Source: Minisyncoccota bacterium (GTDB lineage: Bacteria; Patescibacteriota; Minisyncoccia; Phycocordibacterales; UBA9973). Taken from it: a stretch of 64,000 nt of DNA. The stretch spans positions 28,729 through 92,728 of the forward strand of contig DAOQAL010000002.1 of the NCBI GenBank assembly GCA_035353995.1. Reading direction: 5' to 3'. A program made the position numbers and the translations under genes. This document shows, in pieces, positions 2,623 to 63,299 of this stretch (its first letter is position 1; each line of letters opens with the position of its first letter). Below the pieces are notes generated by a model that did not search any database, was not told the origin of the DNA, and saw nothing but the letters and a program-made list of their open reading frames with translations.

Positions 2623-4374
2623 TTATTTTGAGAATATTTCCCAAACGTTGTCCGTGTTTATATACCATAGATATGAATTTAAAAATCTGTCTGATGATGA
2701 AGTAATTGTATTTATTGAAACACCTTTTAGATTTTTTGACACTACATAAATGAAGTTCGGACTATATATAAATACTGCTGGCATATCTTTTTTTATTTCA
2801 TCTTCAAATTGTGCGTATTTTTTTTCTCTAGCATCTTGATTTGTCATTGTAAATGCATCTTCTAAAATTTTATCAGCTTTTGCATTTGTATACATTGCAA
2901 CATTTAATCCAGGATCTTTTCTTTGTGAAGAATGCCAGAATGCATATAAGTCAGATTCGTGATTTATTATTTCTCCAAAAAGCAAAGCATCATATTTTCG
3001 TGGGCGAATAACAGACTGATTTAAATTGCCAACTTCGAATGTTTTTACATCCACTTTCATTCCGAGTGCAGTAAGATTTTGTCTTATTATCTCTGCTGTT
3101 GCTACAAGCTCTGAAGTGTTACCAGTTGATATAGAAAATTCTATAGTTGATATTGTTTTTTTCTTCTTTACCGTAGTTGTCTTTTTTAAATAACCGTCTT
3201 CTCCTTTTTCCCAACCATCTTTCGCTAAAATTTCTTGTGCCTTTTTAAAATTTTCGTCTGCTGAAGAATTATTTTTTTCATTTTGTTTTTGATATGAAAC
3301 CATATTTGGTGGTATAGGTTCATCTATTGCGACTCCATATCCTGAAAATACTTCTTTAATAATTCTATCCTTATCAATAGACAAATCTATTGCTTCAACT
3401 ATTTTTTTATTAGTGAATATTTGGTTTTGATTCTGATTAAAGAAAAGACCAAACACTCTAGGAAGAACTGAAGACTTAATTACGTAATTTTTCTCTTTTA
3501 ACAATTCAGCATTTTTTGGTGTGATAGAACTTGCTTGTTCAACATTTCCACTTAACAGTGCTGAAATTAATTCTTCTTCATTTGAATAGAAATTCAAAGT
3601 TATATTTTTGATATATGGTTTTCCTAAAGCAAATTTTTGAAAAGATTTAAGTTCGATATTTTTTATTACGCCATTTGATTCTTTGCTAACATTTACTATT
3701 TGGAAAGGACCAGAACCTATAGGGTTTATATTGTAGTCATTTATCTCGATAGGGGAATCTACCCAAAGATGTTCTGGCAATATCCCAAGAGTTGTATTTT
3801 CTAGAAAAGATGCAAATGGTTGTTTCAAAGAAAATTTTATTGTTTTCTCGTCAATTTTTTGTACAGTTACTCCATCCCAATTTGTTTTCTCAGCACTTTT
3901 CGTAAGCGGATCTTTTGCTTTTTCTATTGTGAATACAATATCATCTACTGTTACAGGTTCTCCATCTTGAAAGAATATTTTATCTTTTAATATGAATGTA
4001 TAAGTTAAACCATCTTTTGATATTTCATAACTCTCAGCTAAGTCAGGTATTATTGTGCCATCTTGATTTTTTCTTGTAAGTCCAGAATATACTAAAGATA
4101 CTAGGTCATTATCTGTAGAAGAATATGCGAGAATTGGATTTATAAAACGTGGAGAACCAACAATGCCTTCTGAAATTGAACCTCCTTGCATCGGCACGCT
4201 TACCATAAACTTTTTATTTAATCCTTCCAAAATAACCATTGCGCTTACTGTAAGAGCAAACACAAGAATTAAAAGAATTATACGCTCTCTCTTTGAGAAC
4301 ATAGAAAGAGCCAACCTGATTTTACTTATTAAAGGTAATATAAAATTACGTATACGTTTATAGAAATTTCTCAT
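2623..4374 (-). CDS. ABC transporter substrate-binding protein, family 5 (oligopeptide/dipeptide type)
   Basis: N-terminal transmembrane anchor followed by a long periplasmic-type domain with OppA/DppA-like segments (GGSISEGIVGSPRFINPI..., LAESYEISKDGLTYTFILKDKIFFQDGEPVTVDDIVFT). Confidence 0.7.
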   Translation of the reverse strand: MRNFYKRIRNFILPLISKIRLALSMFSKRERIILLILVFALTVSAMVILEGLNKKFMVSVPMQGGSISEGIVGSPRFINPILAYSSTDNDLVSLVYSGLTRKNQDGTIIPDLAESYEISKDGLTYTFILKDKIFFQDGEPVTVDDIVFTIEKAKDPLTKSAEKTNWDGVTVQKIDEKTIKFSLKQPFASFLENTTLGILPEHLWVDSPIEINDYNINPIGSGPFQIVNVSKESNGVIKNIELKSFQKFALGKPYIKNITLNFYSNEEELISALLSGNVEQASSITPKNAELLKEKNYVIKSSVLPRVFGLFFNQNQNQIFTNKKIVEAIDLSIDKDRIIKEVFSGYGVAIDEPIPPNMVSYQKQNEKNNSSADENFKKAQEILAKDGWEKGEDGYLKKTTTVKKKKTISTIEFSISTGNTSELVATAEIIRQNLTALGMKVDVKTFEVGNLNQSVIRPRKYDALLFGEIINHESDLYAFWHSSQRKDPGLNVAMYTNAKADKILEDAFTMTNQDAREKKYAQFEDEIKKDMPAVFIYSPNFIYVVSKNLKGVSINTITSSSDRFLNSYLWYINTDNVWEIFSK

Positions 4375-5968: not shown

Positions 5969-6177
5969 CCTTCTAGCGTCTAATCCATATTGGATAAGGC
6001 GTTTTCATTTAATAAACAGACTTTGAAAATTTAATAGTTTGAGAACTAGTCCTGCAAAGGAGCAGGACGAAGTGCAAGTAATTTAGTTTATTTTTCAATA
6101 ATTTTATTGAGCATATGATCAAAATATATTAAACAAAAATCATTGCTGTTTTTTGTTTTGTTTCGTTCTAACAACTT

Positions 6178-7712
<1,535 letters not shown>

Positions 7713-20983: not shown

Positions 20984-23900
20984 ATGAAAAAAATAAAAAT
21001 TTTATTCGCCATTTGTTTTGTAGTGGTTTCTGTGTTTTGTGTATTTAAAAGTTTTAAAATAAATAATGCTTTAGGTGACGATACACCATCCATATCTTAT
21101 TCTGGTTCTTTTAGAGAGACTTCAGCAGATATAGGAGCTGTTTCTGGTAGTAGGGTAGCTACTATAACTGGAGATACATTTACAAATGCTGGTGGTGTAT
21201 GGGAAGAAGGTACTTATTATTATCTTACCAATAAACCATTTGGATTAAGTTCCAGTATGGCAGTAAGTTCAGATGGGACAACAGCAACGCTAACTTTTTC
21301 TGGTAATGCAAATTCAAGTACAAATTATAGCGATGTTTCAAATTTAACTATCACATTTTTAGATGGAGCTTTTACGAATAACCCAATAGCATCTGATGTT
21401 ACTAATTATACTGATAGTAATGGTGTTGTTGATTTTGTCTCAATTAATTACTGGAAAGAACTGGGTCCTGTTGTAGGTTCGGTTGAGTCTGGTGTTGATA
21501 TAATATCTCTTAAAATTGATTCAAATGATGTTCCTTATGTTGCTTTTAAAGATTCTAATAATAGTTATGGGCTTACCGTTAAGAAATGGAATGGAAGTGC
21601 ATGGAGCGTAGTTGGGTCTGAAAATTTTTCTTCTGGAGCAGTATACAATATTTCTTTTACAATAGATAAAAATGATGTTCCTTATGTGGCATATACTGAT
21701 TCAACAAACAGTTCAAAAATTACTGTTATGACATTTAATGGTTCATCGTGGGTTTTAGTTGGAACAGCCGGTTTCTCTACTGGTGAAGCTACTGCTACAT
21801 CTATTGCTACTGACAATAGTTATACACCTATTCCTTATGTATCATTTTTTGATAGTTCTGGAAATGTAGAAGTTATGAAATTTGTTGGTATTGATGAAAC
21901 ATATACAACTGGATGGCAAAAAGTTGGCCTTGATATAACTGCCGATAATACAGTTACTGATACTTCTATTGCTCTTAATTCAAGTAATATTCCTTATGTA
22001 GCTTATGTAAAACATTTATTATACGTAGGATCATATACATTTGTTCTAGAATATTCTTCTGATGTCTGGACAGCAGTTGGAGATTTATCTACTGTTCAGT
22101 TAGATTACAATAATTTTGCAATTGATTCACAAGATAATCTTTATGTATCATTTGTCTCAATAAAAGATGGTAGTTATATGAAGTCTATTAAGATAACAAA
22201 ATGGGATGGAAGTGCATGGGTTGATTTACCTATTGCATTTACACTAAACCCTACTACTGAAATTGATATTTCTTCTATATCTTTAGCTTTAGACAAAAAT
22301 GATATACCTTATGTAGCATATCCTGACTATGGATACACTGGTGATAGCCCTCGTATGGCTACGGTTGTAAGTTGTGATAACTGTGATAGTAAATGGAATC
22401 TAGTTGGTAATTCTGATTTTTCATATTATGCTGCGGATGATTTATCTCTTTCTTTAGACTCTAATAATATTCCTTATTTAGCTTTTAATGGAGAAAGCTT
22501 TAACGAAGTAGATTCTGGTGCTATCGTTATGACTTTTAAAACAGTTGAGCAGGTTGTTGGGCTATCCGCTACTGCTGGTGATTCAGAAGTTGATTTGTCT
22601 TGGACTCAATTAATAAATGATGGGTATTTTATTACTGATTATATTATAGAATACAAATTATCTTCAGGCGGTTCTTGGTCTACTTTTGATGATGGAACTT
22701 CGGAAAATCCTACAGCTACTGTTACTGGTTTATCTAATGGATCAAGTTATGATTTTAGAGTCAAGGCTTATAATTCTGTTTTAGGTGAAGGAACTGTTTC
22801 TTCTGTTGCTACGGCTACTCCAGTTTCCGCTACTTCTGCACCTTCGCAAGTTACTGGTCTTTCGGCAAATACAGATAGTATTAGTGAAATTAATTTATCT
22901 TGGACTGCACCTGATGATGGAGGATCTGATATAACTGATTATTTAATTGAATATAAATTAACTTCAGATAGTTCTTGGTCTACTTTTAATGATGGAACTT
23001 CAACAGAAATTACAGAAACAGTAAATGATCTTGATAGCGATACTAGTTATGATTTTAGAGTAAGCGCAATTAATTCTGTTGGAACAGGAACAGCATCTGA
23101 TATAGCAAGTGCAACAACAAAGAAAAAAACTTCTTCTGGTTCCTCAGCTTCTCAAACTATATCACCTGTAACAGAGCCAATAACACAACCCGTAACAGGG
23201 CCTATTACTCCTGTAAATCCACCAATAACAACACCAACAGAGCCTGCAAAACCTATTAATAATGAACCTAAAGAAACAAAACCACCACAACCAGATGAAG
23301 TGGCTCCAGTATTATCACCAATAGAAGAACCAGTAGTCGAAGATTTGCCACCAACAGAAGACGATACAAAACAAATAACAGAACCAGGTGATTCTTTGTG
23401 GAATACAATTTCTAAAGAAATAAGAAAAAGTTTTGTTGCAGTAAGTGATGCATCTTCTAGTGCATATTGGACAGCAAAAGAAGAAATAAATAAAAAAGAA
23501 GTTTCAGTTTTTATAAAAATTTTGACAACTGCTGGCATAGCGATCGGTGCTTTGTTTTCTGTTTTGCCAACATTGTTTGCTAGCCCATTTTCATTTTCAG
23601 AAATAGTATTATTGCCGTTTCGTATATGGTCATTACTTTTAGCTGCTTTGGGATTAAAAAAACGAAATCGTCCTTGGGGTACAGTCTATGATAGTGTTAC
23701 AAAACAACCACTTGATCCAGCTTATGTAATATTAAAAGATGAAAATGGAAAAGAAATTGCTTCTTCAATAACAGATCTTGATGGAAGATATGGATTCTTG
23801 GTAGAAGAAGGAAATTACACATTAGAAGTAAATAAGACGGATTATAAATTCCCATCAAAAAATCTTGAAGGAAAAAATTCAGATGAATTATATCAAAACC

Positions 23901-24445
23901 TTTATCAAGGAGAAGTTATTTCTGTAATGAATTCCGAAGAAGTTATTACAAAAAATATTCCAATGGATCCAATAAAATTTAACTGGAACGAATTTGCTAA
24001 AAAGCAACAGAAACTAAATAAATTTTATTCAAGAAAAGATTTTATCTTTAATAGGATTTCAACAGCATTATTTATCCTTGGTGGAATTACTTCAATTCTT
24101 GCATTGTTATTAGCACCTGAACCGTACAATATAATAATTTTTGCAGTTTATATAGTTCTTTTTGTACTAAGACAGCTTGGTATAAGACCTAAAGATAAAG
24201 GAACTATTTTGGAAAATAATCATCCTTTGCCTTTCTCAATTATCAGAGTATTCCAAAAAGCAACAAATACAGAAATAATACACAAGGTTTCTGATAAGCA
24301 TGGTAAGTTTTATTGTTTAGTTCCAAATGGAAGTTATTATATAAAAATAGAAAAAAAGCTAGAATCTGGTGATTATGAAACTGTTCATGTTTCAGGAATA
24401 ATTGATGTTGCTAAGGGTTTAATAAAGGGGAAATTTGAAGTATAA
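20984..24445 (+). CDS. Large cell-surface protein with mixed domains: signal peptide, ~40-aa ND(V/I)PYVAY repeats, two fibronectin type-III domains, Pro/Thr-rich stalk, TM segments, two carboxypeptidase-regulatory-like (CarbopepD_reg / transthyretin-like) beta-sandwich domains
   Basis: Signal peptide MKKIKILFAICFVVVSVFCVF. At least 7 repeats containing NDVPYVA(F/Y) and W..VG. Fn3-like modules (LSWTQ...YIIEYKL...YDFRVKAYNSVLGEG, and a second copy). P/T-rich linker. Hydrophobic helices around residues 840-890 and 1020-1060. GTVYDSVTKQPLDPAYVILKDENGKEIASSITDLDGRYGF is CarbopepD_reg-like. Confidence 0.6.
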   Translation: MKKIKILFAICFVVVSVFCVFKSFKINNALGDDTPSISYSGSFRETSADIGAVSGSRVATITGDTFTNAGGVWEEGTYYYLTNKPFGLSSSMAVSSDGTTATLTFSGNANSSTNYSDVSNLTITFLDGAFTNNPIASDVTNYTDSNGVVDFVSINYWKELGPVVGSVESGVDIISLKIDSNDVPYVAFKDSNNSYGLTVKKWNGSAWSVVGSENFSSGAVYNISFTIDKNDVPYVAYTDSTNSSKITVMTFNGSSWVLVGTAGFSTGEATATSIATDNSYTPIPYVSFFDSSGNVEVMKFVGIDETYTTGWQKVGLDITADNTVTDTSIALNSSNIPYVAYVKHLLYVGSYTFVLEYSSDVWTAVGDLSTVQLDYNNFAIDSQDNLYVSFVSIKDGSYMKSIKITKWDGSAWVDLPIAFTLNPTTEIDISSISLALDKNDIPYVAYPDYGYTGDSPRMATVVSCDNCDSKWNLVGNSDFSYYAADDLSLSLDSNNIPYLAFNGESFNEVDSGAIVMTFKTVEQVVGLSATAGDSEVDLSWTQLINDGYFITDYIIEYKLSSGGSWSTFDDGTSENPTATVTGLSNGSSYDFRVKAYNSVLGEGTVSSVATATPVSATSAPSQVTGLSANTDSISEINLSWTAPDDGGSDITDYLIEYKLTSDSSWSTFNDGTSTEITETVNDLDSDTSYDFRVSAINSVGTGTASDIASATTKKKTSSGSSASQTISPVTEPITQPVTGPITPVNPPITTPTEPAKPINNEPKETKPPQPDEVAPVLSPIEEPVVEDLPPTEDDTKQITEPGDSLWNTISKEIRKSFVAVSDASSSAYWTAKEEINKKEVSVFIKILTTAGIAIGALFSVLPTLFASPFSFSEIVLLPFRIWSLLLAALGLKKRNRPWGTVYDSVTKQPLDPAYVILKDENGKEIASSITDLDGRYGFLVEEGNYTLEVNKTDYKFPSKNLEGKNSDELYQNLYQGEVISVMNSEEVITKNIPMDPIKFNWNEFAKKQQKLNKFYSRKDFIFNRISTALFILGGITSILALLLAPEPYNIIIFAVYIVLFVLRQLGIRPKDKGTILENNHPLPFSIIRVFQKATNTEIIHKVSDKHGKFYCLVPNGSYYIKIEKKLESGDYETVHVSGIIDVAKGLIKGKFEV

Positions 24446-27909: not shown

Positions 27910-27930
27910 TGTCAAAGACCGTCTTTGACA
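27910..27930. repeat. REP palindrome TGTCAAAGACCGTCTTTGACA (copy C) overlapping the 3' end of the RAYT gene
   Basis: The last 7 codons of the RAYT ORF (KHVKDGL*) are read from this palindrome. Confidence 0.65.
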
Positions 27931-28541
27931 TGCTTGGTGTTATTGGCTATAGTTTCTTTTTCGAAATCTTTTTTGCTGAAAACTGATTCTAAAAAATCTT
28001 TAAATACGATTGATGAATTTCTATTTTCGGTAAAATCTTTATAGCTACTCCATTTATATTGACCAGGGTGTTTAACTAAACCATCCTTTACTGGATTCAT
28101 ATGTATATAAGCGGAAGTCCACATAAACTGCGGATTGTTTTCAATATTTACTGCTTTAAATTTATCTTGAAATACATGTCCAACTTTTTTATATTTTAAA
28201 TTTAGATATTTTGCATAGCTAGTACATGTTTGAGATATTAGCCTAGAAATAGGAACATCTCCGCATTGTTCTATCAATAAATGAAAATGATTTGGCATAA
28301 GGCAAAAAGAATGTAATTTAAATGATTTAGCATTTCCGTTTATTCTAATTCGTGAATTTTTTACTGACGATATGTCATCTTTTTTTAGAATTTCTTTATC
28401 TACTCCGAGAGATAGACCAAGTCTAAAAAGGAAAGCATTATAGTCGCTTTCTTCGTGGAAAATTTTTTCTTTATTATTACCTCGATTGTAAACATGCACC
28501 AAAGCACCAGGCATAAATGTTTTATAGTCTCTATTGTTCAT
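27912..28541 (-). mobile_element. REP-associated tyrosine transposase (RAYT), IS200/IS605 TnpA-like Y1 HUH enzyme
   Basis: HUH motif CLMPNHFHLLI. C-terminal catalytic-Tyr helix FMWTSAYIHMNPVKDGLVKHPGQYKWSSYKDF closely parallels E. coli RAYT (YafM) ...[28 protein letters not shown] as recalled from memory. N-terminal HVYNRGNNKEKIF. Flanked on both sides by the same palindrome. Confidence 0.8.
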
Positions 28542-28646: not shown

Positions 28647-29174
28647 ATGTTTGCTGATCCGATAAAAAATTTAAAACAACTTGGATTAAGAGAAGATATG
28701 ATTGTAGCTGATTTAGGGGCGGGAACAGGTTTTTATTCTATTGCTGCAGCAAAAATGGTACCAAATGGAAAAGTATATGCTATAGAAGTAATAAAAGATT
28801 ATTTGATTACTATAAAAAATAAAGCGAAAGAATTTCATATTAACAATCTTGAATGTTTTTGGGGAGATATTGAAAAACTTGGTGGAACAAAATTAAAAGA
28901 TGGCATTGTTGATGCTGTTATACTTTCGAATATTTTATCTCAAATTGAGGACAAGAGTGGTCTTGTTCTTGAAGTTAAAAGAATATTAAAACAAAATGGT
29001 AAGGTTCTTGTAGTAGACTGGTCTGAATCTTCTGCTTTAGGTCCAAAACCAGATAAAATAATTTTGAAAGATAAAGTAGTTGAAATATTTGCAAAAAAAG
29101 GATTAACTTTTAATCGTGATATTGATGCTGGTAGTCATCATTATGGTATTGTTTTAACAAATAAAAAAATATGA
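28647..29174 (+). CDS. Class I SAM-dependent methyltransferase
   Basis: Motif I VADLGAGTGFYSIAAA and motif post-I/II spacing typical of Methyltransf_11/25. Confidence 0.6.
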   Translation: MFADPIKNLKQLGLREDMIVADLGAGTGFYSIAAAKMVPNGKVYAIEVIKDYLITIKNKAKEFHINNLECFWGDIEKLGGTKLKDGIVDAVILSNILSQIEDKSGLVLEVKRILKQNGKVLVVDWSESSALGPKPDKIILKDKVVEIFAKKGLTFNRDIDAGSHHYGIVLTNKKI

Positions 29175-30466
29175 AAGGAAATTTTAAAATAGTAATGTTA
29201 GTTATTTGTATTATTGCAGCTGTTTTTGGAATTTTAGTTTTTGCTGGATTAATTACAATTGGTAGTGATAAAAACGAAGAAGGCTCTCTTGGTACAGTCA
29301 TAATATGGGGAACAGATAAAATGCAAAACCTAGCTAAGCCAATAGAGAATTTCAATAAAGTAAATACAACCTTTACGGTAAAGTATGTTCAAAAAGACGC
29401 AGAAACATTTGATGAAGACTTACTCGAAGCTCTTGCTTCAGGAACAGGTCCTGATATGTTTTTTATCTCTAATGAATTAGCACATAAATACAGTAATAAA
29501 ATTTATACTATTCCATACACAAGTTATCCATTGGCTTCATTTAAAGGTACATTTGCAAGCGCTGGTGATGTATTTTTGACTTCAAATGGTGTATTAGCAT
29601 TTCCTTTAACGATAGACCCTATTGTTATGTATTACAACAGAAGCATATTGGATTCAAGCAATGTAATTTATCCACCAACAAATTGGACTGAATTAACAAA
29701 TCTTGTGCCTTCAATTACAGTAAAAGATGGATCAAATAAAATTTCAACAAGCACTGTTGCATTAGGCCAGTTTTCAAATATACTTCATGCAAAAGATATT
29801 TTAGTAACTCTTTTTATGCAGGCTGGAAATTCTATAGTAACTGAAAGTAATGGGACATTTTCTTCGGTTTTAGATTCAACAGATTCAAAATATAGTCTTA
29901 GCTCGATGCTAGAATATTATACGAATTTTTCTGACCCATTAAGCGATACATATTCTTGGAACAAATCACTTGCAAATTCGCAAGATTATTTTAGCTCAGA
30001 AAATTTAGCATTTTATTTTGGATATGCAAGTGAGATGGAAACATTGGTAAATAAAAATCCAAATTTAAATTTTCTAGTTTCTGCTATTCCTCAAATAGAA
30101 AATTCTAAAACAAAGGTAACAAATTCTAAGGTTACCGGTATAGCAATTTCTTCATTTTCTAAAAATTTCAGCACGGCTTTTACTGCTGCAAGTTTGATGT
30201 CAACGGGTAGTTTTGCATCTGATTATATAAAAGCTACATCATATATACCTGCAAGAAGAGATCTTCTTTCTGAAAAAAAGACCGATGCATTTTCTCCTAT
30301 ATTTTATGCTTCAGCATTATACGCAAAAAGTTGGATTGATCCATCTAGTGAAGACACGAATGATATTTTTAGAACTATGATTGATGGAACTCTTTCGAAT
30401 AGCTTATCAACAAATGAAGCCATAAAAGATTCAAGCGCAAAACTTGATTTATTATTAGCGAAATAA
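29171..30466 (+). CDS. Extracellular solute-binding protein (ABC transporter SBP family 1, sugar-type), membrane-anchored
   Basis: N-terminal TM anchor followed by a MalE-like alpha/beta domain (TVIIWGTDKMQNLAKPIENFNK...). Confidence 0.5.
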   Translation: MKGNFKIVMLVICIIAAVFGILVFAGLITIGSDKNEEGSLGTVIIWGTDKMQNLAKPIENFNKVNTTFTVKYVQKDAETFDEDLLEALASGTGPDMFFISNELAHKYSNKIYTIPYTSYPLASFKGTFASAGDVFLTSNGVLAFPLTIDPIVMYYNRSILDSSNVIYPPTNWTELTNLVPSITVKDGSNKISTSTVALGQFSNILHAKDILVTLFMQAGNSIVTESNGTFSSVLDSTDSKYSLSSMLEYYTNFSDPLSDTYSWNKSLANSQDYFSSENLAFYFGYASEMETLVNKNPNLNFLVSAIPQIENSKTKVTNSKVTGIAISSFSKNFSTAFTAASLMSTGSFASDYIKATSYIPARRDLLSEKKTDAFSPIFYASALYAKSWIDPSSEDTNDIFRTMIDGTLSNSLSTNEAIKDSSAKLDLLLAK

Positions 30467-30488: not shown

Positions 30489-30893
30489 ATGAAAAAAACA
30501 ATAACTATATTATCTTTAACTCTTCTTTTGGGGTTTTTAATTTTTCCTGCATTTTCTTTTGCAGAAGAAACAACAGATCTTTCTACTAGCGGTGGTGGAC
30601 TTACTGCAGCATGCCCAGAAGGGGGGTGTGGTTTTAAAGAATTAGTTGATGTAGTTAATAAAGTGATAAATTATGTTTTATTTGTACTTGCAATACCAAT
30701 AGCAGCGATTATGTTTGCATATGCAGGAATATTGCTTATAACATCTGGTGGCGAACCTTCTAAAAGAACAAAAGCAAAAAGTATTTTTGTGAATGTTGGT
30801 ATCGGTCTTGTTGTGGCTGCTGCAGCTTGGCTTATTATTAATACTATTCTTTCAATAGTTGGTTTTGATGGGTCGTGGATTGGTTTTAAGTAA
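30489..30893 (+). CDS. Small secreted two-helix membrane protein, TrbC/VirB2-pilin-like paralog 1
   Basis: Sec signal peptide (MKKTITILSLTLLLGFLIFPAFSFA), Cys pair CPEGGC, then hydrophobic helix - charged loop (GGEPSKRTKAKS) - hydrophobic helix. Confidence 0.5.
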   Translation: MKKTITILSLTLLLGFLIFPAFSFAEETTDLSTSGGGLTAACPEGGCGFKELVDVVNKVINYVLFVLAIPIAAIMFAYAGILLITSGGEPSKRTKAKSIFVNVGIGLVVAAAAWLIINTILSIVGFDGSWIGFK

Positions 30894-30895
30894 TA

Positions 30896-31318
30896 GTGTA
30901 TAATTTATTTATGATAAATAATTTTAAAAAGAATTTATTTGTATTAATCTTAGTTTCTTTTATCGTTTTCTCTCCAGTTTTATTATTTGCACAAGGTGGA
31001 ACAGGAAGCCTTGGCGACAGTGGCGGAACAGGAAGTTTGAGTGGAGATACCACTAGTGGCCAACTTAAAAATCCAATTAATCAAAGTTCTATAAATGGTC
31101 TTATTAAGACAATTCTAGAAGGCGTTCTAAAAATAGGAATACCAATAGTTGCATTAGCCATAATATATTGTGGTTTTCTTTTTGTTTCTGCAAGAGGAAA
31201 TCCAGAGGCATTAAAAAAAGCTAAAGATGCACTAATCTATACTTTAATTGGAGCAGCGATTCTTTTGGGATCGTGGGCAATTGCGCAACTTATTTCTGAT
31301 ACAGTATTAAAATTATAA
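30896..31318 (+). CDS. TrbC/VirB2-pilin-like paralog 2
   Basis: Signal peptide, Gly/Ser/Thr-rich segment, helix - loop (RGNPEALKKAKD) - helix. Confidence 0.5.
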   Translation: MYNLFMINNFKKNLFVLILVSFIVFSPVLLFAQGGTGSLGDSGGTGSLSGDTTSGQLKNPINQSSINGLIKTILEGVLKIGIPIVALAIIYCGFLFVSARGNPEALKKAKDALIYTLIGAAILLGSWAIAQLISDTVLKL

Positions 31319-31327
31319 ATAATTTAT

Positions 31328-32077
31328 ATGAAAAATAAAAAAATAAAAAAAATTTGTTTGATGATTCTAATATTAGCAGTTATAGCTGTGCCATTTTTAT
31401 CTTTTGCTCAAAATGTAACTGATGTTACTCCAGTAGAAGAAGCGTGTGGAGCATCTTCTACTGATTTATTAGGAATAATTTGTAGAATAGGTTTTTATTT
31501 GAATCAAATAATTCCAATATTGCTTGCATTAGGAGTTGTATATTTCGTATGGGGGGTTATTACCTATATGATAAAAGATGATGAGGAAGCAAAGAAAAAA
31601 GGAAAGAATAGAATTATTTACGGCATTATTGGTTTGGTTGTAATAATATCACTATGGGGTATTGTGACTATTGTTATAGATAGTCTTGGTATTGATACGC
31701 AAGAACTTGCTCGAATCACACCTTCAACAGAGCAAATTACACAAACTTATGAGACTTCAGGTGTATGCATAGCAAATTATAAAAAATTATCCTCTCCTGT
31801 ATTGGGAGATTTAATTAACTATGTTACTTGCACTATAAGTAAATCAGTAATTCCATTGCTTTTCATTCTAGCTGTCCTCTTATTTATATGGGGTGTTGTT
31901 CAGTATGTTATTAATGCAGATTCTGATGAGAAAAGAACAAAAGGTAGGGATTTTATGATATGGGGAATTATTGGTCTTGTTGTCATGACATCAATTTGGG
32001 GTTTGGTTAAGATTTTTGGAGATACATTTGATATTAAAACTGATTTCGTGCCTCAAGTTAATACACAGGGGCAGTAA
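31328..32077 (+). CDS. TrbC/VirB2-pilin-like paralog 3 (internally duplicated: two copies of the helix-loop-helix module)
   Basis: Signal peptide, then IIPILLALGVVYFVWGVITYMIKDDEEAKKKGKNRIIYGIIGLVVI..., repeated as IPLLFILAVLLFIWGVVQYVINADSDEKRTKGRDFMIWGIIGLVVM... Confidence 0.5.
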   Translation: MKNKKIKKICLMILILAVIAVPFLSFAQNVTDVTPVEEACGASSTDLLGIICRIGFYLNQIIPILLALGVVYFVWGVITYMIKDDEEAKKKGKNRIIYGIIGLVVIISLWGIVTIVIDSLGIDTQELARITPSTEQITQTYETSGVCIANYKKLSSPVLGDLINYVTCTISKSVIPLLFILAVLLFIWGVVQYVINADSDEKRTKGRDFMIWGIIGLVVMTSIWGLVKIFGDTFDIKTDFVPQVNTQGQ

Positions 32078-32208
32078 GTTTAACAGTGTTTTTATGTTAT
32101 AATTAGATAAACCTATTTTTAGGAAAATATTATTAGTAAGGTCGCATTTATTATTAGTTCAGCCACAGGCTGATATCCGCTCGAAGCGGTAAAATATTAA
32201 AAATTATT

Positions 32209-32583
32209 ATGAAAAAGAAGTTAATTGTTTTGTCAGGTTTGATTGCACTTGCTCCATTTGCTTTTGCTGATGCTGGTCTTTGTACTTTTCAAACTGGTAT
32301 TCAAGCAGTTATTTGTAAAATTGGTGAGATTTTAAATACAATTATACCAATTTTGATTGTATTGGGTGTTGTTTACTTCGTATGGGGAGTTATCACCTAT
32401 ATGATAAACGACGATGAAGAAGCAAAAAAGAGGGGAAAGAATAAAATTATTTACGGAATAATTGGTTTAGTTGTTATCGTTGGCATGTGGGGATTGGTAA
32501 AGATAATAACAAGCACTTTTGATTTGGATAATAATAGTGCAGGTATTGAAACTCCATGTGTCCCAGGAACTCCAGGATGTTAA
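32209..32583 (+). CDS. TrbC/VirB2-pilin-like paralog 4
   Basis: Signal peptide; core IIPILIVLGVVYFVWGVITYMINDDEEAKKRGKNKIIYGIIGLVVIVGMWGLVKI nearly identical to module 1 of paralog 3. C-terminal CVPGTPGC. Confidence 0.5.
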   Translation: MKKKLIVLSGLIALAPFAFADAGLCTFQTGIQAVICKIGEILNTIIPILIVLGVVYFVWGVITYMINDDEEAKKRGKNKIIYGIIGLVVIVGMWGLVKIITSTFDLDNNSAGIETPCVPGTPGC

Positions 32584-32598
32584 AATAATTCATTATTT

Positions 32599-32922
32599 AT
32601 GGGATTTTTATTTGTAAATGTTGCATATGCGAGTGTTGATTCATTCGTAATAAATCTAAATAAGTTGATAATCAATCCTCTTATTTTATTACTCTTTGCT
32701 TTAGCTGTAGTATATTTTTTATATGGCATTGTTGAATTTCTTTCTAATCAAGAAAATGAAGATAAAAGAAGCAAAGGTAAAAGTCATATGATATGGGGAA
32801 TTATTGGAATGACTATTATGATGGGAGTATTTACTATTATGAAACTAATATTAAATACTTTAAATATAGATGGAATTAATCCAGAGAAGGGAACAGTGCA
32901 ACTAGATAATTATCCAGAATAA
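32599..32922 (+). CDS. TrbC/VirB2-pilin-like paralog 5
   Basis: LILLLFALAVVYFLYGIVEFLSNQENEDKRSKGKSHMIWGIIGMTIMMGVF core. Confidence 0.45.
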   Translation: MGFLFVNVAYASVDSFVINLNKLIINPLILLLFALAVVYFLYGIVEFLSNQENEDKRSKGKSHMIWGIIGMTIMMGVFTIMKLILNTLNIDGINPEKGTVQLDNYPE

Positions 32923-32944
32923 ATTTTTTGAAAATAAATTTCCA

Positions 32945-32972
32945 AAAACCCCGAAAGGGGTTTTTGTTTTTT
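32945..32972 (+). terminator. Intrinsic terminator ending the pilin-like array
   Basis: AAAACCCC-GAAA-GGGGTTTT followed by a T-run. Confidence 0.6.
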
Positions 32973-32981
32973 AAGGAAAAT

Positions 32982-33022
32982 AAAAAAAGCGGTTTGCTTT
33001 CGCAAACCGCTCAGTGTTTTTT
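32982..33022. terminator. Bidirectional terminator (A-run, GCGGTTTGC-TTTC-GCAAACCGC, T-run)
   Basis: Perfect 9-bp stem flanked by an A-run upstream and a T-run downstream. Also serves the convergent minus-strand operon. Confidence 0.6.
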
Positions 33023-34930: not shown

Positions 34931-35674
34931 TTATGCGTGCTTTAATGGCACTGACTCATTTTCTTTGTTTGAGAACAACTTCCTCCATAGAACTACTATA
35001 AGCAATATTAGGATAAAGAAGAATATCCATTGAACAAGACTTGATGGCATAAATGCGCTTGAACCAAATATTGCATTTGATGCTAATTCGCTTTCTTGAT
35101 CACTTGTTTCTTTTATCGTCTTAGAATTTGCGCTAGTAGCCTGATTTGCAGTTGAACTTACAACTGAAGTTTTTGCTTTGGATGTTGTATTTGCGCTCGC
35201 ATTTGTGGGATTAGTTACTTTAAAAGTAATTGCATTTGAGTATCCTCCACCGGGAGCTGGGTTGAAAACTGAAATAGAGTAACTGCCAATTGTTCCAAGT
35301 TCGTAAGAATTCAATTGAGCTGTAAGAGTTGAAGAATTTATAAATGATGTATTCAAATCATGATCATTTAATCTAATATTTGATTCAGGAGTAAAATTTC
35401 TTCCTTTTACAGTTATTGTTATATTTGAATTCTTAGTTATAGAATTTGGACTTACTGAAGTTACTGAAGGATTAGGATTATAATCATCATTTGACCAATT
35501 TCCAGATCCTCCGTTGTTACTATCATCATAGTAACCAACATATTCACCATCTTCCCAACCAACATGATAATAAGCGTTTGCGTTGTTTGGTAATAAGACC
35601 AATAAGTTCAAAACAAAAACTATTGAAGTGGCAAAAACGAAAGATATTAAGTTTTTATAATTTATTTTAAACAT
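34931..35674 (-). CDS. Surface protein with IPT/TIG-like domain and C-terminal TM anchor
   Basis: Signal peptide, PSVTSVSPNSITKNSNITITVKGRNFTPESNIRLND (IPT/TIG-like), Ser/Thr-rich stalk, C-terminal hydrophobic helix. Confidence 0.45.
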   Translation of the reverse strand: MFKINYKNLISFVFATSIVFVLNLLVLLPNNANAYYHVGWEDGEYVGYYDDSNNGGSGNWSNDDYNPNPSVTSVSPNSITKNSNITITVKGRNFTPESNIRLNDHDLNTSFINSSTLTAQLNSYELGTIGSYSISVFNPAPGGGYSNAITFKVTNPTNASANTTSKAKTSVVSSTANQATSANSKTIKETSDQESELASNAIFGSSAFMPSSLVQWIFFFILILLIVVLWRKLFSNKENESVPLKHA

Positions 35675-51268: not shown

Positions 51269-52912
51269 ATGAACTCGAATGAAATCAGACAAAAGTTTTT
51301 AAGTTTTTTTGAGAACAAAGGACATAAAATAATTTCTTCATCTTCTCTTATACCTGAAAATGATCCATCAGTGCTTTTTACTACTGCTGGTATGCAACAA
51401 TTTAAAAAATATTACATAGATCCAGAATTGGCAGAAAAAGAACTTGGAAGTAAAAATGTTGTAACTGTGCAAAAATGTGTCAGGACTGGTGACATAGATG
51501 AAGTTGGTGATAATTCGCATTTAACATTTTTTGAAATGCTAGGTAATTTTTCTTTTGGTGGTTATGGAAGAAAGGAAGCTATAGAATATGCTTACGAATT
51601 TATTACAAAAGAAATGAATTTAGATATTTCTTATGTAACTTGCTATAAAGGAGAAGGAATTGTTCCAAAAGATTCTGAGTCTGAAAAAGTTTGGCAAGAG
51701 CTCGGATTGAAAGATATTAGGGAAGAGGGATCTGATGTTTTTTGGGGACCAACTGGAGATTCTGGTCCTTGTGGCCCTACTACGGAAATTTATTGTAAGA
51801 ATGCGTCTGGAGAAGATGTAGAAATTTGGAATATAGTTTTTAATGAATATTTTTGTAATGGTTCACGGGAGAAATTAGATAAAGGTGAAGCCGAATTAAA
51901 AAAATTACCAGTTTTAGGAATTGATACTGGAATGGGTTTTGAAAGACTTGTTTCTATAGTTCAGAATAAAAAAAGCGTTTACTATACTGATTTATTTGAA
52001 GGTGAAAATACAAGAGAAGAAAGAGTTGTTTCTGATCATATTAAAGCATCTATGTTTTTAATTTCTGATGGTGTTGTTGCTTCTAATACTGGAGCAGGGT
52101 ATGTTCTTCGCAGATTGATTAGAAGAGCTGTAAGATTTACAAAAGAACCACTAAAAAATAGAATAGAAAAAGTAAAAAATTTATACAAAGGAATTTATGA
52201 TTTAGATGAAAAAGGAGAAATAGAAAAAGAAGCAGAAAAATTTAAATTAACGCTAGAACATGGTTTGAAAGAATTTGAAAAAGGTATTGATCCTTTTATT
52301 CTAGCTACCACTTATGGTTTTCCTATTGAACTTACAGAGGAATTGGCAAAAGAAAAGGGAATAAAAATAAATTTGGAAGATTTTAATAAAAAAATGGCAG
52401 AGCATCAAAAGCTTTCTCAAACAGCTTCAGCTGGAATGTTTAAAGGAGGACTAGCTAGTCATTCTGAAAAAGCTACTAAATTACACACAGCACATCACTT
52501 GCTTTTGTCTGCTTTACAAAAAGTTGTTAATCCAGAAATACATCAAAGGGGAAGTAATATTACAGATGAAAGATTGAGAATAGATTTTATTTGTGATCAT
52601 AAATTAACGGAAGAAGAAAAGAAAAATGTTGAAGATCTAGTAAATGAAAAGATTAAGAGTGATTTAAATGTAATCAAAAAAGAAATGCCACTTTCTGAAG
52701 CCCAAAAGACAGGAGCAGAAATGGAATTTGGTGCAAAGTATCCAGAAATAGTTACAGTTTATTTTATTGAAGATAAAAATGGTAATGTTTTTTCGAAAGA
52801 ATTTTGTGGAGGACCACACGTTTTGCATACTGGTGAATTAGGAATATTCAAAATAATAAAAGAAGAAGCCGTATCTGCTGGTATTAGGAGAATAAAAGCT
52901 ACACTTATATAA
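51269..52912 (+). CDS. alaS: Alanine--tRNA ligase, minimal form (catalytic core plus editing domain, no C-Ala domain)
   Basis: Class II AlaRS N-terminus (FLSFFENKGHKII.SSSLIP.NDPSVLFTTAGMQQFK), GMGFERL, editing-site HTAHHLL and CGGPHV motifs. Only 547 aa. Confidence 0.8.
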   Translation: MNSNEIRQKFLSFFENKGHKIISSSSLIPENDPSVLFTTAGMQQFKKYYIDPELAEKELGSKNVVTVQKCVRTGDIDEVGDNSHLTFFEMLGNFSFGGYGRKEAIEYAYEFITKEMNLDISYVTCYKGEGIVPKDSESEKVWQELGLKDIREEGSDVFWGPTGDSGPCGPTTEIYCKNASGEDVEIWNIVFNEYFCNGSREKLDKGEAELKKLPVLGIDTGMGFERLVSIVQNKKSVYYTDLFEGENTREERVVSDHIKASMFLISDGVVASNTGAGYVLRRLIRRAVRFTKEPLKNRIEKVKNLYKGIYDLDEKGEIEKEAEKFKLTLEHGLKEFEKGIDPFILATTYGFPIELTEELAKEKGIKINLEDFNKKMAEHQKLSQTASAGMFKGGLASHSEKATKLHTAHHLLLSALQKVVNPEIHQRGSNITDERLRIDFICDHKLTEEEKKNVEDLVNEKIKSDLNVIKKEMPLSEAQKTGAEMEFGAKYPEIVTVYFIEDKNGNVFSKEFCGGPHVLHTGELGIFKIIKEEAVSAGIRRIKATLI

Positions 52913-59801: not shown

Positions 59802-60434
59802 ATGGATGAAGAAGAATCAAAAAAAAATAAAAAAACAGATCCAATTTCAGTCGGAACTGATTCAGGAAAAGAAGAAAAAGACGAGTCAGAAGTTCTTGAA
59901 TTTGAATTTAATGAAGACGGGGAAGAAGATTTCAAAAAGACAATAAAGAAACTTCGAGCTGATTTAAAAAAGGCTAAAAAAGAAAAGGATGAGTATTTAA
60001 CAGGTTGGCAAAAAGAGCGAGCTGATTTTACTAATTACAAAAAACAAGAAGAAGACAGAAAAATAAATTTTTCAGAATCAATTCGTGAAAGAATCTTAAC
60101 AAGATTTTTGACAGTGACAGATAGTTTTAATATGGCTTTTAAAAACAAAGAAGTATGGGAAAAAGTAGATGAGAGTTGGAGAAAGGGAGTTGAATATATA
60201 TATTCTCAGATGAATACAATTTTTGAGGAATACGGAGTAAAACCAGTTGGTGAAGTAGGTGAAAGCTTTGACCATAATATTCATCATTCTATTGAAATGA
60301 TTCCGACTGATAAAAAAGAAGATGATCATAAAATTGCAGAAGTAATTCAAAAAGGTTACAAATTGGGCGATCGCGTTATTCGTGTCGCCAGGGTGAATGT
60401 TTTTGAATACAAAAATGACAAACCCGCAGAATAA
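59802..60434 (+). CDS. grpE: Nucleotide exchange factor GrpE
   Basis: Acidic N-terminus; RADFTNYKKQEEDRK; C-terminal FDHNIHHSIEMIPTD...VIQKGYKLGDRVIRVARVNV. Confidence 0.85.
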   Translation: MDEEESKKNKKTDPISVGTDSGKEEKDESEVLEFEFNEDGEEDFKKTIKKLRADLKKAKKEKDEYLTGWQKERADFTNYKKQEEDRKINFSESIRERILTRFLTVTDSFNMAFKNKEVWEKVDESWRKGVEYIYSQMNTIFEEYGVKPVGEVGESFDHNIHHSIEMIPTDKKEDDHKIAEVIQKGYKLGDRVIRVARVNVFEYKNDKPAE

Positions 60435-62217
60435 AACACATTCAGCAGGCAGAGTCTCAAAGACCTGCCAAAATTGTAAATGCGAATTCACTATTGAATC
60501 GGAAGATTTTAAATTTTACGAAAAGTTTGGAGTGCAGGTACCAGGATTTTGCCATGAATGTAGATTGCAAAGAAAATTAACATGGCGCAACGAGCGTTCT
60601 TTATATAAAAGAAATTGTGGTCTCTGTGGGAAGACGGTTATCTCTGTTTTTTCCTCAGACAAACCTTTTCCTGTGTATTGTCACGATTGTTATCGTGGAC
60701 ATTCCTGGGATCCACTTTCTTATGGAGAAGAAGTTGATTTTTCAAAGCATTTTTTAGATCAATTTTTTGAATTACAACAGAAAGTTCCTAGACAATATGC
60801 TTTGGTTTTCGGTAACATTAATAGTGAATATACCAATGGTACTGGTTACAACAAAAATTGTTATTTAATTTTTGTTAGTGATCACAACGAAGATTGTTTC
60901 TATTCCTTCAATATTTACTATTGTAGAAATTCTCTTGATCTTTCAACTTGTTTTAATTGTGAGTATTGTTATGAGCTTCTAAATTGTTCCGATTGTAATC
61001 ATTGTTCATTTTCGATCGACTGTCGAGATTCCTACAATCTTCTTTTTTCCAAAGATTGTGTAAATTGTCATGACTTAGTTGGTTGTGTTGGATTGCGTAA
61101 TAAAGCATATGCAATTTTTAATGTTGTTTATTCTAAAGAAGAATACGAGAAAAGAATTTCCGATTTAGATCTTTCCTCATACCATTCAACGATGGCAATT
61201 AAATCAAAGGCGCAGGATTTGTTCAGAAAATACCCAGTGAAATACTTACATGGATCAAACAATAAAGATGTGACTGGTGATATGGTAAATAATTCAAAAA
61301 ATACACTCCATGCTTTTTCTGCTAAGAGTCTTGAAGACAGTAAATATATTATCAATGGTAACAAAGCACGGGAATCTTATGAATGTTATGTAGCGGTAGA
61401 CGATTCGGAATATTGTTTTGATAGCTTGGGTTGTGCCAATACACAAAATGTGAAAGCTAGCCATTTACCTTGGGATAGTTTTGATTGTGATTATACAGAC
61501 GCTTGTGAGAGTTCCAATAACTGTTTCGGATGTGTAGGACTTTTGCATCATGAATACTGCATTTTAAATAAAAGATATTCCAAAGAGGAATATGTAAAAT
61601 TGCGTGAAAAAATTATTGCTGGAATGAAAGAAAAACCATATACCGATAAAGAGGGAAGAACATATAACTTCGGGGAGTTTTTTCCAGCAGAGTTTTCACC
61701 TCACGATTATAATGAAACATTAGCAAATTTTTATTACCCTCTTTCAAAAGAAGAAGCAAAAAAACATGGTTACTTTTGGAAAGATCCAGAACCAAAAGAT
61801 TATACAATAACTTTAGATTCTGATAACTTACCAAACAATATAAAAAATGTGGATGATTCGATTCTAAAAGAAGTAATAGTTTGCGAGCACAAAGGAAGTT
61901 GTATCACTGACCAATGTACGGAAGCATTTAGGATAACACCTGGAGAACTCGTTTTATATCGTCGTCTTAATATTCCTTTGCCTAGGTTGTGCCACAATTG
62001 TCGTTACTATGAACGCTTGAAGCTTGAAAACCCAAAGAAACTTTGGAAGAGACAATGTCAGTGTGCTGGATCTCACTCGGAAAATGGGTTATATAAAAAT
62101 ACAGGGACGCACGAACATAAAGGAGAGAAATGCCAAACTGAATTTGAAACCAGCTATGCTCCCGATAGGAAAGAGATTGTTTATTGTGAGAAGTGTTACC
62201 AAAAAGAGGTGTATTAA
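60397..62217 (+). CDS. Cys-rich protein with terminal zinc-ribbon modules and an internally duplicated Cys-repeat core (unknown function)
   Basis: More than 50 Cys residues. N-terminal CQNCKC...CHECR...CGLCGK...YCHDCY and C-terminal CEHKGSC...CHNCRYYERLK...CQCAG...YCEKCYQK are homologous zinc ribbons. Central halves share ...GCVGL....Y.I.N..YSKEEY.K. The ORF-track start overlaps grpE by 38 nt, so the true start is probably the internal Met at about 60415. Confidence 0.5.
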   Translation: MFLNTKMTNPQNKTHSAGRVSKTCQNCKCEFTIESEDFKFYEKFGVQVPGFCHECRLQRKLTWRNERSLYKRNCGLCGKTVISVFSSDKPFPVYCHDCYRGHSWDPLSYGEEVDFSKHFLDQFFELQQKVPRQYALVFGNINSEYTNGTGYNKNCYLIFVSDHNEDCFYSFNIYYCRNSLDLSTCFNCEYCYELLNCSDCNHCSFSIDCRDSYNLLFSKDCVNCHDLVGCVGLRNKAYAIFNVVYSKEEYEKRISDLDLSSYHSTMAIKSKAQDLFRKYPVKYLHGSNNKDVTGDMVNNSKNTLHAFSAKSLEDSKYIINGNKARESYECYVAVDDSEYCFDSLGCANTQNVKASHLPWDSFDCDYTDACESSNNCFGCVGLLHHEYCILNKRYSKEEYVKLREKIIAGMKEKPYTDKEGRTYNFGEFFPAEFSPHDYNETLANFYYPLSKEEAKKHGYFWKDPEPKDYTITLDSDNLPNNIKNVDDSILKEVIVCEHKGSCITDQCTEAFRITPGELVLYRRLNIPLPRLCHNCRYYERLKLENPKKLWKRQCQCAGSHSENGLYKNTGTHEHKGEKCQTEFETSYAPDRKEIVYCEKCYQKEVY

Positions 62218-62237: not shown

Positions 62238-62348
62238 TACAGTATACTGTAGCAAATTAAATCCATTAATACAATTTATAACAGTATACTGTGGTAAATT
62301 GAATTTACCTATGTAATTTATAACAGTTTACTGTGATAAATTGAATTT
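62238..62348. repeat. Three tandem 42-bp repeats, each carrying the 12-bp palindrome ACAGTATACTGT (third copy ACAGTTTACTGT) and a TAAATTGAATTTA palindrome
   Basis: Palindrome copies begin at 62239, 62281 and 62323 with exact 42-bp spacing. They sit in the convergent gap between the Cys-rich gene and the PaaX-like gene. Confidence 0.6.
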
Positions 62349-62874
62349 AGCTTTTGATAGATTCGATGAAGGCGAGAGAAGTTTCTGGGTCTAATTTATC
62401 TGTGACAATTATCATAAGTTCTGTAGAGAGGCCCAAATCTTTTTTTATATTAGTAAAAAGATGTTCGTATGGGTGAGGGGAGATCCAAACAGTATTTTTT
62501 ATACATACAAAATTTGCTTTCTTTAAAAGATAGCGTAATGCTTCACGTTCGCTTTTTCTTTCTTCCGGTATATCTAAAATTATAATTCTCCAAAATCCAT
62601 CCCAAGTATTTGGCACCAAAGCTTCTTCTCCTTCAAGTCGTATTGAATTTAATTTACCTTGTCCCTTTTTCGTTATTTTTAAATATTTTTGATTGTCAGA
62701 ATTGTGTATTTCTACGCAACCAGATTCAACTAATTGTTTGATTGAACGGGCTAAAGCATAGTTCCTTTTAGGATCATTATCCTTAATTGTGTCAAAAGAA
62801 ATTGCTGGTTTTTCTGCTAAAATTTTTAAAATAGCCTTTTGAATATTAGATTTTTTGGAATTTTCAGATTTCAT
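62347..62874 (-). CDS. PaaX-family-like transcriptional regulator (winged-helix N-terminus, PaaX_C-like C-terminus)
   Basis: WDGFWRIIILDIPEERKSEREALRYLLKKANFVCIKNTVWISPHP matches the PaaX C-terminal consensus W.G.W.L.....PE..R..R..LR..L...GFG.L....W(I/V)SP as recalled from memory. Confidence 0.45.
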   Translation of the reverse strand: MKSENSKKSNIQKAILKILAEKPAISFDTIKDNDPKRNYALARSIKQLVESGCVEIHNSDNQKYLKITKKGQGKLNSIRLEGEEALVPNTWDGFWRIIILDIPEERKSEREALRYLLKKANFVCIKNTVWISPHPYEHLFTNIKKDLGLSTELMIIVTDKLDPETSLAFIESIKS

Positions 62875-63020: not shown

Positions 63021-63299
63021 ATGATAGATCCAAAAAAAATAGATTTTAATCAATTGCCAAAGAAGTTTTGTGACGGAGCAATTGGAGCATTTAATAAAGA
63101 ATCATTTTTCTTTGCTTTCACATCCGGAAATAATTTGGATGTCTTTGCTACTACTCCGAGAACAATGAAAGATATTGCGATTTTTCTGACAAGACATGTT
63201 GAAAATTATGAAAAACAATTCGGAGAAATAGATATGACCATTCCTGAAATACCGAGCCCACTTCAAATGTCCGATTTGGGTAGTTCTGATAAAAAATAA
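63021..63299 (+). CDS. DUF3467-like small protein
   Basis: GAIGAFNKESFFFAFTSGNNLDVFATTPRTMKDIAIFLTRHVENYEKQFGEI follows the DUF3467 pattern (A....HS.SEF.LDF...P.......R....P.HAK.L...L.ENV..YE) as recalled from memory. Confidence 0.4.
   Translation: MIDPKKIDFNQLPKKFCDGAIGAFNKESFFFAFTSGNNLDVFATTPRTMKDIAIFLTRHVENYEKQFGEIDMTIPEIPSPLQMSDLGSSDKK

Follow-up and report, generated by a model that had tools for sequence, protein, structure and literature searches.

The closest described counterparts of the locus reported here are the tandem pilin gene arrays of Patescibacteria. In a survey of 3,035 Patescibacteria genomes, which were searched with PF04956 and PF18895 among other profiles, Quinonero-Coronel et al. 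(2025) found VirB4 in 2,417 assemblies (~80%) and VirB2-like pilins in 1,948 VirB4-carrying assemblies; the pilins lay near virB4 in 1,135 of these 1,948 and so away from it in ~40% (PMC12102498). The same survey counted 441 arrays spread over 383 assemblies; they comprise 2–11 pilin genes, which are 25% identical on average, and were most abundant in Microgenomatia and Saccharimonadia (PMC12102498). In Southlakia epibionticum, the pilin series inside its type IV secretion system (T4SS) cluster was found by transposon sequencing to be essential for epibiotic growth (Wang et al., 2023; PMC10633639), and a 2025 review reports six VirB2-like pilins that diverge in sequence and raises, as a speculation, the idea of a pilus conduit (PMC12857230). 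Here we describe an array of five pilin genes (p1–p5) in a 64,000-nt stretch of contig DAOQAL010000002.1 from a Minisyncoccota bacterium (assembly GCA_035353995.1); this whole stretch is called the window below. The analysis points, with a probability of roughly 70%, to VirB2/TrbC-type pilin subunits for a chromosomal T4SS encoded elsewhere in the genome, which would assemble them into a channel or pilus-like structure that serves contact with a host.

All five proteins scored above the gathering cut-off of the Pfam family PF18895, T4SS_pilin (26.6 bits; p1 45.8, p2 35.5, p3 74.6, p4 41.5, and p5 31.0 bits), and the match of p3 fell in two stretches. When PF04956 (TrbC/VirB2; cut-off 27.9 bits) was used, p2 scored 29.2 bits and passed, p1 (19.8), p4 (18.3), and p3 (17.1) stayed below, and p5 gave no match. 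By these scores, p2 is the most TrbC/VirB2-like of the five paralogs. The NCBIfam model NF045849 (cut-off 40 bits) was passed by p3 (58.4) and p4 (42.9) and not by p1 (30.5), p2 (30.2), and p5 (31.2); as this model is typed as an equivalog for proteins of Mycoplasma integrative and conjugative elements (ICEs), a passing score does not imply the same role. A search with p4 returned 783 homologs, every one with PF18895, and a protein identical to p4 carries the NCBI name 'MAG TPA: pilin [Candidatus Paceibacterota bacterium]'. Precomputed PF18895 matches are also on record for these genes in the public contig. Quinonero-Coronel et al. (2025) define a Patescibacteria pilin array as 2–11 PF04956 or PF18895 genes in tandem or with one non-pilin gene between them, and the locus holds five adjacent PF18895 genes.

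An earlier sequence-only reading of this DNA had likened the five proteins to TrbC/VirB2 pilins, which agrees with the PF18895 scores of all five and the PF04956 score of p2. It had also considered a novel family, and this idea is not supported: the family is curated in Pfam, the NCBI name is already that of a pilin, and arrays of this kind have been published (PMC12102498, PMC10633639, PMC12857230). The five consecutive plus-strand genes of 107–249 amino acids (aa) that it listed were confirmed as open reading frames (ORFs). Since all five pass the PF18895 cut-off and have positional orthologs in 80 other species-level genomes, they are real genes and not chance ORFs. With p3 containing two modules, the five genes encode six predicted pilin modules, which belong to the Patescibacteria branch of PF18895.

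According to the hydropathy analysis, each of the five proteins contains a pair of long hydrophobic segments with a loop rich in Lys and Arg between them, and p3 carries two such modules. AlphaFold2 modelled p4, from 46 homologs, as a helical hairpin with helices at residues 31–66 and 70–103 (predicted local distance difference test score, pLDDT, of 72.7). The p3 model (pLDDT 62.9, from a shallow alignment) consists of a leader helix and the two hairpins delimited in Table 1, with a disordered linker between them. The helix-loop-helix hairpin proposed earlier was thus seen in the hydropathy of all five proteins and in the models of p3 and p4, and the description of paralog 3 as a two-module protein was upheld by both methods. 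The proteins appear to follow the plan of VirB2/TrbC pilins, namely a cleavable leader, two helices, and a short basic loop, with p5 having only a short uncharged N-terminus instead of the leader.

The classical signal peptide had been ascribed to all five paralogs. As read from the sequences, the predicted leaders of p1–p4 have a K-rich n-region, an h-region, and an ...FA site, so the claim stands for these four; it fails for p5, the N-terminus of which is 11 residues long, uncharged, and without a basic n-region. The Cys-containing mature N-terminus, likewise ascribed to all, is limited to p1, p3, and p4, each of which has a Cys pair there, while the sole Cys of p2 sits within helix 1 and p5 contains none. 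In the alignment of p4 orthologs, the Cys25/Cys36 pair of the mature N-terminus is invariant and the C-terminal PCVPGTPGC is widely conserved. This suggests two small disulfide loops, one at each exposed end of the predicted hairpin.

The readings as holins, TM2-domain proteins, bacteriocins, or membrane-active peptides in general were rejected. The best holin match was Phage_holin_5_2 with E=0.37, far below the threshold, and the TM2 and bacteriocin searches gave no significant family match. The surrounding genes are housekeeping genes, with no phage or lysis context. A tblastn search of 72,556 plasmids with p2 found no plasmid relatives.

The methyltransferase gene, the gene for the solute-binding protein (SBP) SBP_bac_1, and the five pilin genes (Table 1) look like one transcription unit, as the gaps between them are short and the predicted terminators stand solely after p5. 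The genes p1–p5 are separated by 9–17 nt, except for the 131 nt between p3 and p4; the methyltransferase and SBP_bac_1 genes overlap by 4 nt, and 22 nt lie between the stop codon of SBP_bac_1 and p1. The terminator scan gave 12 terminator-like sites against 2.1 expected in shuffles. The pair at 32943–33011 closes both the array and the convergent SPFH operon, and no terminator of comparable strength was found inside the array. This convergent operon lies on the minus strand and encodes an SPFH/Band_7 protein along with a membrane protein of 212 aa. The flanks had therefore been described correctly, with SBP_bac_1 (PF01547) upstream and the convergent Band_7/SPFH gene downstream. It should be noted that the ORF of p2 opens earlier, at GTG 30896, which would give a 140-aa version. 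Judged by gene order and spacing, the pilin genes together with those for the methyltransferase and the membrane-anchored SBP_bac_1 are a conserved chromosomal operon.

Table 1. Genes and terminators of the predicted pilin operon (positions within the window).
Feature	Position	Strand	Description
SAM-dependent methyltransferase	28647–29174	+	Pfam Methyltransf_31/11/25; first gene of the likely transcription unit
SBP_bac_1, membrane-anchored family-1 solute-binding protein	29171–30466	+	PF01547, 59.3 bits
Pilin paralog 1 (p1)	30489–30893	+	134 aa; predicted signal peptide ending ...FSFA, CPEGGC in the mature N-terminus, then hairpin
Pilin paralog 2 (p2)	30911–31318	+	135 aa from ATG 30911 (public gene call); Gly/Ser/Thr-rich mature N-terminus
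Pilin paralog 3 (p3)	31328–32077	+	249 aa; predicted signal peptide, hairpin a at aa 47–119 (p4-like), disordered linker with Cys, hairpin b at aa 159–233
Pilin paralog 4 (p4)	32209–32583	+	124 aa; predicted signal peptide ending ...AFA, Cys25/Cys36, hairpin, C-terminal PCVPGTPGC
Pilin paralog 5 (p5)	32599–32922	+	107 aa; N-terminus MGFLFVNVAYA, no Cys, then hairpin
Tandem pair of G+C-rich hairpins that carry T-runs on both strands	32943–32966 and 32988–33011	both	Predicted bidirectional terminators (terminator scan and inverted repeat)

For the comparison with related genomes, 80 further species-level loci of Paceibacteria/Nomurabacteria-like bacteria were collected by looking up exact proteins and by scanning species-representative genomes once. 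The ORFs of these loci were called and searched with a hidden Markov model built from the window paralogs plus two ortholog sets, and the neighbouring genes were labelled by their homology to window genes. Nearly every locus showed the same block, which begins with glucosaminidase, S1, Lactamase_B_3, gyrA, in some cases an IS200-like Y1 transposase, methyltransferase, and SBP_bac_1. Then come 5–6 pilin genes, SPFH where present, the TIG-domain protein, rbfA, IF2, DUF4446, aminotransferase, an unknown gene, and clpB. The copy-number comparison proposed with the sequence-only reading was thus made, and the number and position of the pilin genes agreed in nearly all of the 80 loci. The order of methyltransferase, SBP_bac_1, and pilins was kept in essentially all of them, down to relatives at 32–39% identity. 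When the pilin modules were typed against those of the window, their order was also fixed: 1, 2, (3a/4-like), 3b, 4, 5. Gene 3 has a single module in 24 loci and is a two-module fusion in ~45, about half of the loci. A further 4-like gene stands free in about a dozen loci, and module a of p3 is absent from relatives of the L002 type.

The positional orthologs share 53–73% identity with the window pilins (p1 53–63%, p5 66–73%), which is similar to SBP (60–67%) and methyltransferase (66–68%), and the start N(V/I)AYA(S/G)VDSF of p5 is conserved. Meanwhile, the paralogs share only 23–47% with one another, except for the pair of module 3a and p4 with 67%. As the orthologs are as similar as the flanking genes and far more similar than the paralogs, the array is ancient and each of its members is individually maintained. 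The p3a–p4 pair, described earlier as nearly identical over about 50 residues, is less alike than that: the identity is ~84% over a 51-residue core, 67% over 79 aa, and 72% in DNA over 238 nt. The latter two values indicate an old duplication. The proposal of ongoing diversification by tandem amplification is contradicted by a gene number, gene order, and two-module gene that are conserved over ~80 species with orthologs at 53–73%.

The same comparison bears on the possibility that the genes are recently amplified, fast-diversifying, and interchangeable subunits for antigenic or host-range variation, by analogy with the VirB2 paralogs of Bartonella and Anaplasma. The paralogs are indeed highly divergent in the exposed N-terminal segment, the lineage of module 3a and p4 has undergone duplication, fusion, and loss among species, and adaptation to host strains was raised in the published discussion of pilin arrays (PMC12102498). 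Such variation is nevertheless very improbable here, given that each paralog has a positional ortholog elsewhere and the order 1-2-(3a)-3b-4-5 is fixed, that even the closest pair, p3a and p4, differs at more than a quarter of its DNA positions, and that neither recombination repeats nor silent cassettes were found. The suggestion of antigenically varying subunits in the sequence-only reading was set aside for this reason, namely the individual conservation of the paralogs across species in a fixed order.

Within the ortholog groups, conservation is unevenly distributed along the proteins. The hairpin is 54–77% identical to that of the window protein and free of indels. In p1, p2, and p4, the N-terminal part of the mature protein is 17–25% identical and has many indels; for p2, the values are 62–77% for the hairpin and 17% for the N-terminus. 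Such a pattern would be expected of a packed core from which the N-terminus is exposed. In nine loci (L013, L015, L022, L023, L041, L043, L065, L067, and L082), the first array gene encodes an extended p1 ortholog of 300–617 aa, with fn3, Pur_ac_phosph_N, DUF5018, or InlB-B-repeat (Ig-like) domains before the hairpin. Because fn3 and Ig-like domains are fused ahead of the hairpin, the N-terminus of p1 is probably located outside the cell. The domain arrangement of the extended p1 orthologs suggests adhesin display by an 'adhesin-pilin' fusion.

None of the ORFs of the window matched VirB4, VirB6, VirB3, VirB8, or VirB11. The earlier statement that no other T4SS genes are nearby is correct for the 64-kb window but does not extend beyond it, as two genes for ATPases of the type IV coupling protein (T4CP)/VirD4-like kind (744 and 526 aa) are present on the same contig between dnaK and dnaJ, ~32 kb from the array. 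They lie at the window-equivalent positions ~65344–69469 (L008:14948–19073), that is, 1.3 kb past the right end. Both score above the Pfam thresholds for TrwB_AAD_bind, T4SS-DNA_transf, and TraG-D_C and match TraD/VirD4-type NCBIfam models weakly. They appear to have no N-terminal membrane anchor, since the matched ATPase domain begins at about residue 30–55; a treble-clef zinc finger is present in the first one. Among the 80 relatives, homologs of the array are not confined to complete T4SS loci, and the closest description of the locus is that of an ordinary if relocated pilin set which never adjoins T4SS machinery genes in this clade.

Several observations weigh against the assignment of the array to a pilus-building T4SS. 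VirB4, VirB6, VirB3, and VirB8 were not found in the 10-kb flanks of the window either, which brings the covered part of the genome to ~84 kb, and within ±10 kb of the array, none of the 80 relatives has a gene that can be recognised as T4SS machinery. Because machinery genes are missing near the array, the link to a T4SS comes from family homology and literature statistics. The two VirD4-like ATPases are weak evidence for this link, as T4CP homologs are near-universal in Patescibacteria, usually unlinked to virB4, and non-essential in S. epibionticum, according to the literature. The fold searches gave nothing specific and did not tell VirB2 apart from generic helical hairpins, and a profile of 46 p4 homologs had zero matches among PDB sequences even at E ≤ 10, no solved pilin included. 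The family assignment therefore rests on sequence profiles, as is to be expected for a simple hairpin. Finally, none of the Patescibacteria T4SSs has so far been seen to form a pilus (PMC12857230).

This last point leads to the possibility that the proteins are T4SS components without an extracellular pilus, i.e., membrane hairpins that line or stabilise a monoderm translocation channel, or a short stub spanning the cell wall. The Patescibacteria VirB4 clade belongs with the Gram-positive-type T4SSs, which are generally without pili (PMC12102498, PMC10633639), and the best NCBIfam match is a protein from ICEs of Mycoplasma, a wall-less monoderm with no known pilus. In spite of this, we regard such a role as unlikely: the variable mature N-termini and the Ig-like and fn3 fusions to p1 orthologs agree more with exposure at the surface than with a role buried in a channel, and five to six conserved, distinct paralogs resemble a set of major and minor subunits.

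The lack of a T4SS neighbourhood can also be read as independence from any T4SS, with the array and SBP_bac_1 forming a surface or membrane complex that captures or imports host-derived solutes, or with the pilins forming a self-assembling filament. The constant order of methyltransferase, SBP_bac_1, and pilins with their close spacing is in line with this, as are the separation from virB4 throughout the clade and the fact that no gene for an ABC permease or ATPase partner of the SBP was found in the window. SBP_bac_1 has a single N-terminal hydrophobic segment (residues 1–33), and its best NCBIfam match, to GanS, is weak. The adjacency of the SBP implies no functional link by itself, because the entire 20-kb neighbourhood (S1, LactB3, gyrA ... 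IF2, clpB) is equally syntenic, and the array has no SBP in Shapirobacteria-type relatives (L089). Furthermore, VirB4 is present in ~80% of Patescibacteria assemblies (PMC12102498), which does not favour a system working without it. Assembly without VirB4 and VirB6 is not known for any VirB2-family protein, and we consider a T4SS-independent complex improbable. A related version, in which the pilin set has become uncoupled from the T4SS cluster and builds with the SBP a filament or complex for host nutrients, either VirB4-independent or as a specialised uptake conduit, seems similarly doubtful. If true, an SBP-linked conduit would be without a described counterpart among T4SSs. Another binding protein that looks like an orphan, SBP_bac_5, is encoded on the minus strand at 2623–4374.

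If the array does supply the pilins of a T4SS encoded elsewhere, the following mechanism can be proposed. The proteins p1–p4 would be exported N-terminus-first via the Sec pathway, with signal peptidase cutting after the ...(F/Y)A motif, and p5 would probably be inserted into the membrane without a classical leader. Both helices of each hairpin would span the membrane and leave the K/R-rich loop on the cytoplasmic side. A monoderm-type (MPF-FATA-like) T4SS, with VirB4, VirB6, VirB3/PrgI, and TrsD encoded elsewhere in the genome, would then extract and polymerise the subunits, as family membership and the literature lead us to infer. Once polymerised, they would form a channel or pilus-like structure at the cell surface that serves contact or exchange with a host cell, as proposed for the S. 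epibionticum array. In such a structure, the distinct paralogs may serve as non-redundant major, minor, or tip subunits and not as interchangeable antigenic variants. No peptidase for pilin cyclisation was found in the window.

The arrays of some distant relatives have unusual neighbours. In L089 (6379–10248) and L087 (8381–9976), proteins without a Pfam match follow or interrupt the array, namely one of 783 aa whose sole hydrophobic segment is N-terminal and polytopic membrane proteins of 504 aa and 531 aa; by their topology, the polytopic ones could be VirB6-like. Large unknown ORFs beside the arrays of L035, L039, L055, L087, and L089 were examined as candidate T4SS genes and rejected, as they encode a topoisomerase, a tRNA synthetase, or a DUF6909 protein or have no Pfam match, and not one of them matched a T4SS family.

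The window has a G+C content of ~30%, and its housekeeping genes include those for RNase J, several Mur ligases, and a short IF2 as well as secA, gyrA, and clpB. It is taken to be part of a Patescibacteria (CPR) chromosome of the Paceibacteria type, and it corresponds, in reverse orientation, to a part of the public contig Ga0116171_10000020 (163,865 bp) of JGI metagenome 3300009692. Further housekeeping genes of the window are typA, alaS, rpoA, grpE, and ribosomal protein genes, and there are six tRNA genes. A complete 16S rRNA gene lies at 6177–7712 (+); the rRNA genes appear to be unlinked, as neither a 23S nor a 5S gene accompanies it anywhere in the window. Many related contigs begin 10–50 kb upstream of their array, which would fit assembly breaks at the 16S rRNA gene. 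The GC skew over a stitched 81.5 kb follows the gene strand, and no replication origin was seen in it.

Two further predicted surface proteins are encoded in the window. The first (34931–35674, −) has 247 aa and combines an IPT/TIG domain with a Ser/Thr-rich stalk and a C-terminal anchor; nearly all relatives keep it downstream of the array. The second, a 1153-aa fn3/CarboxypepD_reg protein, is encoded at 20984–24445 (+), upstream of gyrA. The IS200-like Y1 transposase gene at 27912–28541 (−) lies between gyrA and the methyltransferase gene, and its homolog is found at the same position in ~19 related loci and absent from the rest. Mobile elements do not usually keep one position in different species, which suggests that the insertion is domesticated or very old.

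Three genes split the grpE-dnaK operon, with dnaK just outside the window. They encode a 606-aa protein with a weak CxxC zinc finger as its sole family match (60397–62217, +), a PaaX_M protein with a Cas2-like domain (62347–62874, −), and a small DUF3467-like protein (63021–63299, +). The alanyl-tRNA synthetase ORF at 51269–52912 (+) has 547 aa, which is short for this enzyme, and the public contig calls the stretch as two genes of 99 and 432 aa (L008:873–2516).

As to the significance of these results, the family, its tandem arrays, and their frequent separation from virB4 had already been published, and the proteins already bear the name pilin in public records. The present analysis adds an ancient operon, fixed throughout a large, uncultivated clade, of apparently non-interchangeable subunits that stands away from virB4 and beside an orphan SBP. 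It also adds a double pilin of two fused modules and a putative adhesin-bearing pilin, the latter in some species. The findings bear on the open question of what the T4SS and the putative pilus of Patescibacteria do, and they argue against simple antigenic variation. They further point to p1 with its Ig-like domains and to the SBP as candidates for host contact.

Compared with known systems, the locus most resembles the Patescibacteria arrays such as that of Ca. Southlakia epibionticum ML1 (six pilins within SEML1_0006-0019). These are from the same phylum and the same Pfam families (PF18895/PF04956) and likewise consist of 2–11 tandem genes for small Sec-type hairpin proteins on the chromosome, without a relaxase context. 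Paralog identity is also low in both, ~25% in the published arrays and 23–47% here, with one pair at 67%. Unlike the Southlakia array, the present one lies outside a T4SS cluster, in a fixed housekeeping block after gyrA, the methyltransferase, and SBP_bac_1; it also differs in that it includes a two-module fused pilin and comes from a Paceibacteria/Nomurabacteria-like lineage, whereas the catalogued arrays were most abundant in Microgenomatia and Saccharimonadia.

The TrbC/VirB2 pilins of diderm T4SSs (PF04956; A. tumefaciens VirB2 and RP4 TrbC) share the leader, the two hydrophobic helices, and the basic loop. They differ in that four of the five paralogs described here stay under the PF04956 threshold, the host is of the monoderm type without an outer membrane, five or six paralogs take the place of one, and no adjacent virB3 or virB4 was found. 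The Mbov_0395/MMCAP2_0565 family of Mycoplasma ICEs (NF045849) is matched above the cut-off by p3 and p4, and both contexts are monoderm (MPF-FATA-type). The Mycoplasma pilin-like protein is, however, the product of a single gene in a mobile ICE beside a VirB4-like ATPase, in contrast to the several genes of the present array, which occupy a stable chromosomal housekeeping region that shows no ICE features. Several divergent tandem VirB2 copies in a host-dependent bacterium are also known from the T4SSs of Bartonella and Anaplasma phagocytophilum. Those copies are thought to give antigenic variation and are located with or near the virB genes, whereas the paralogs of the present array are individually conserved across species.

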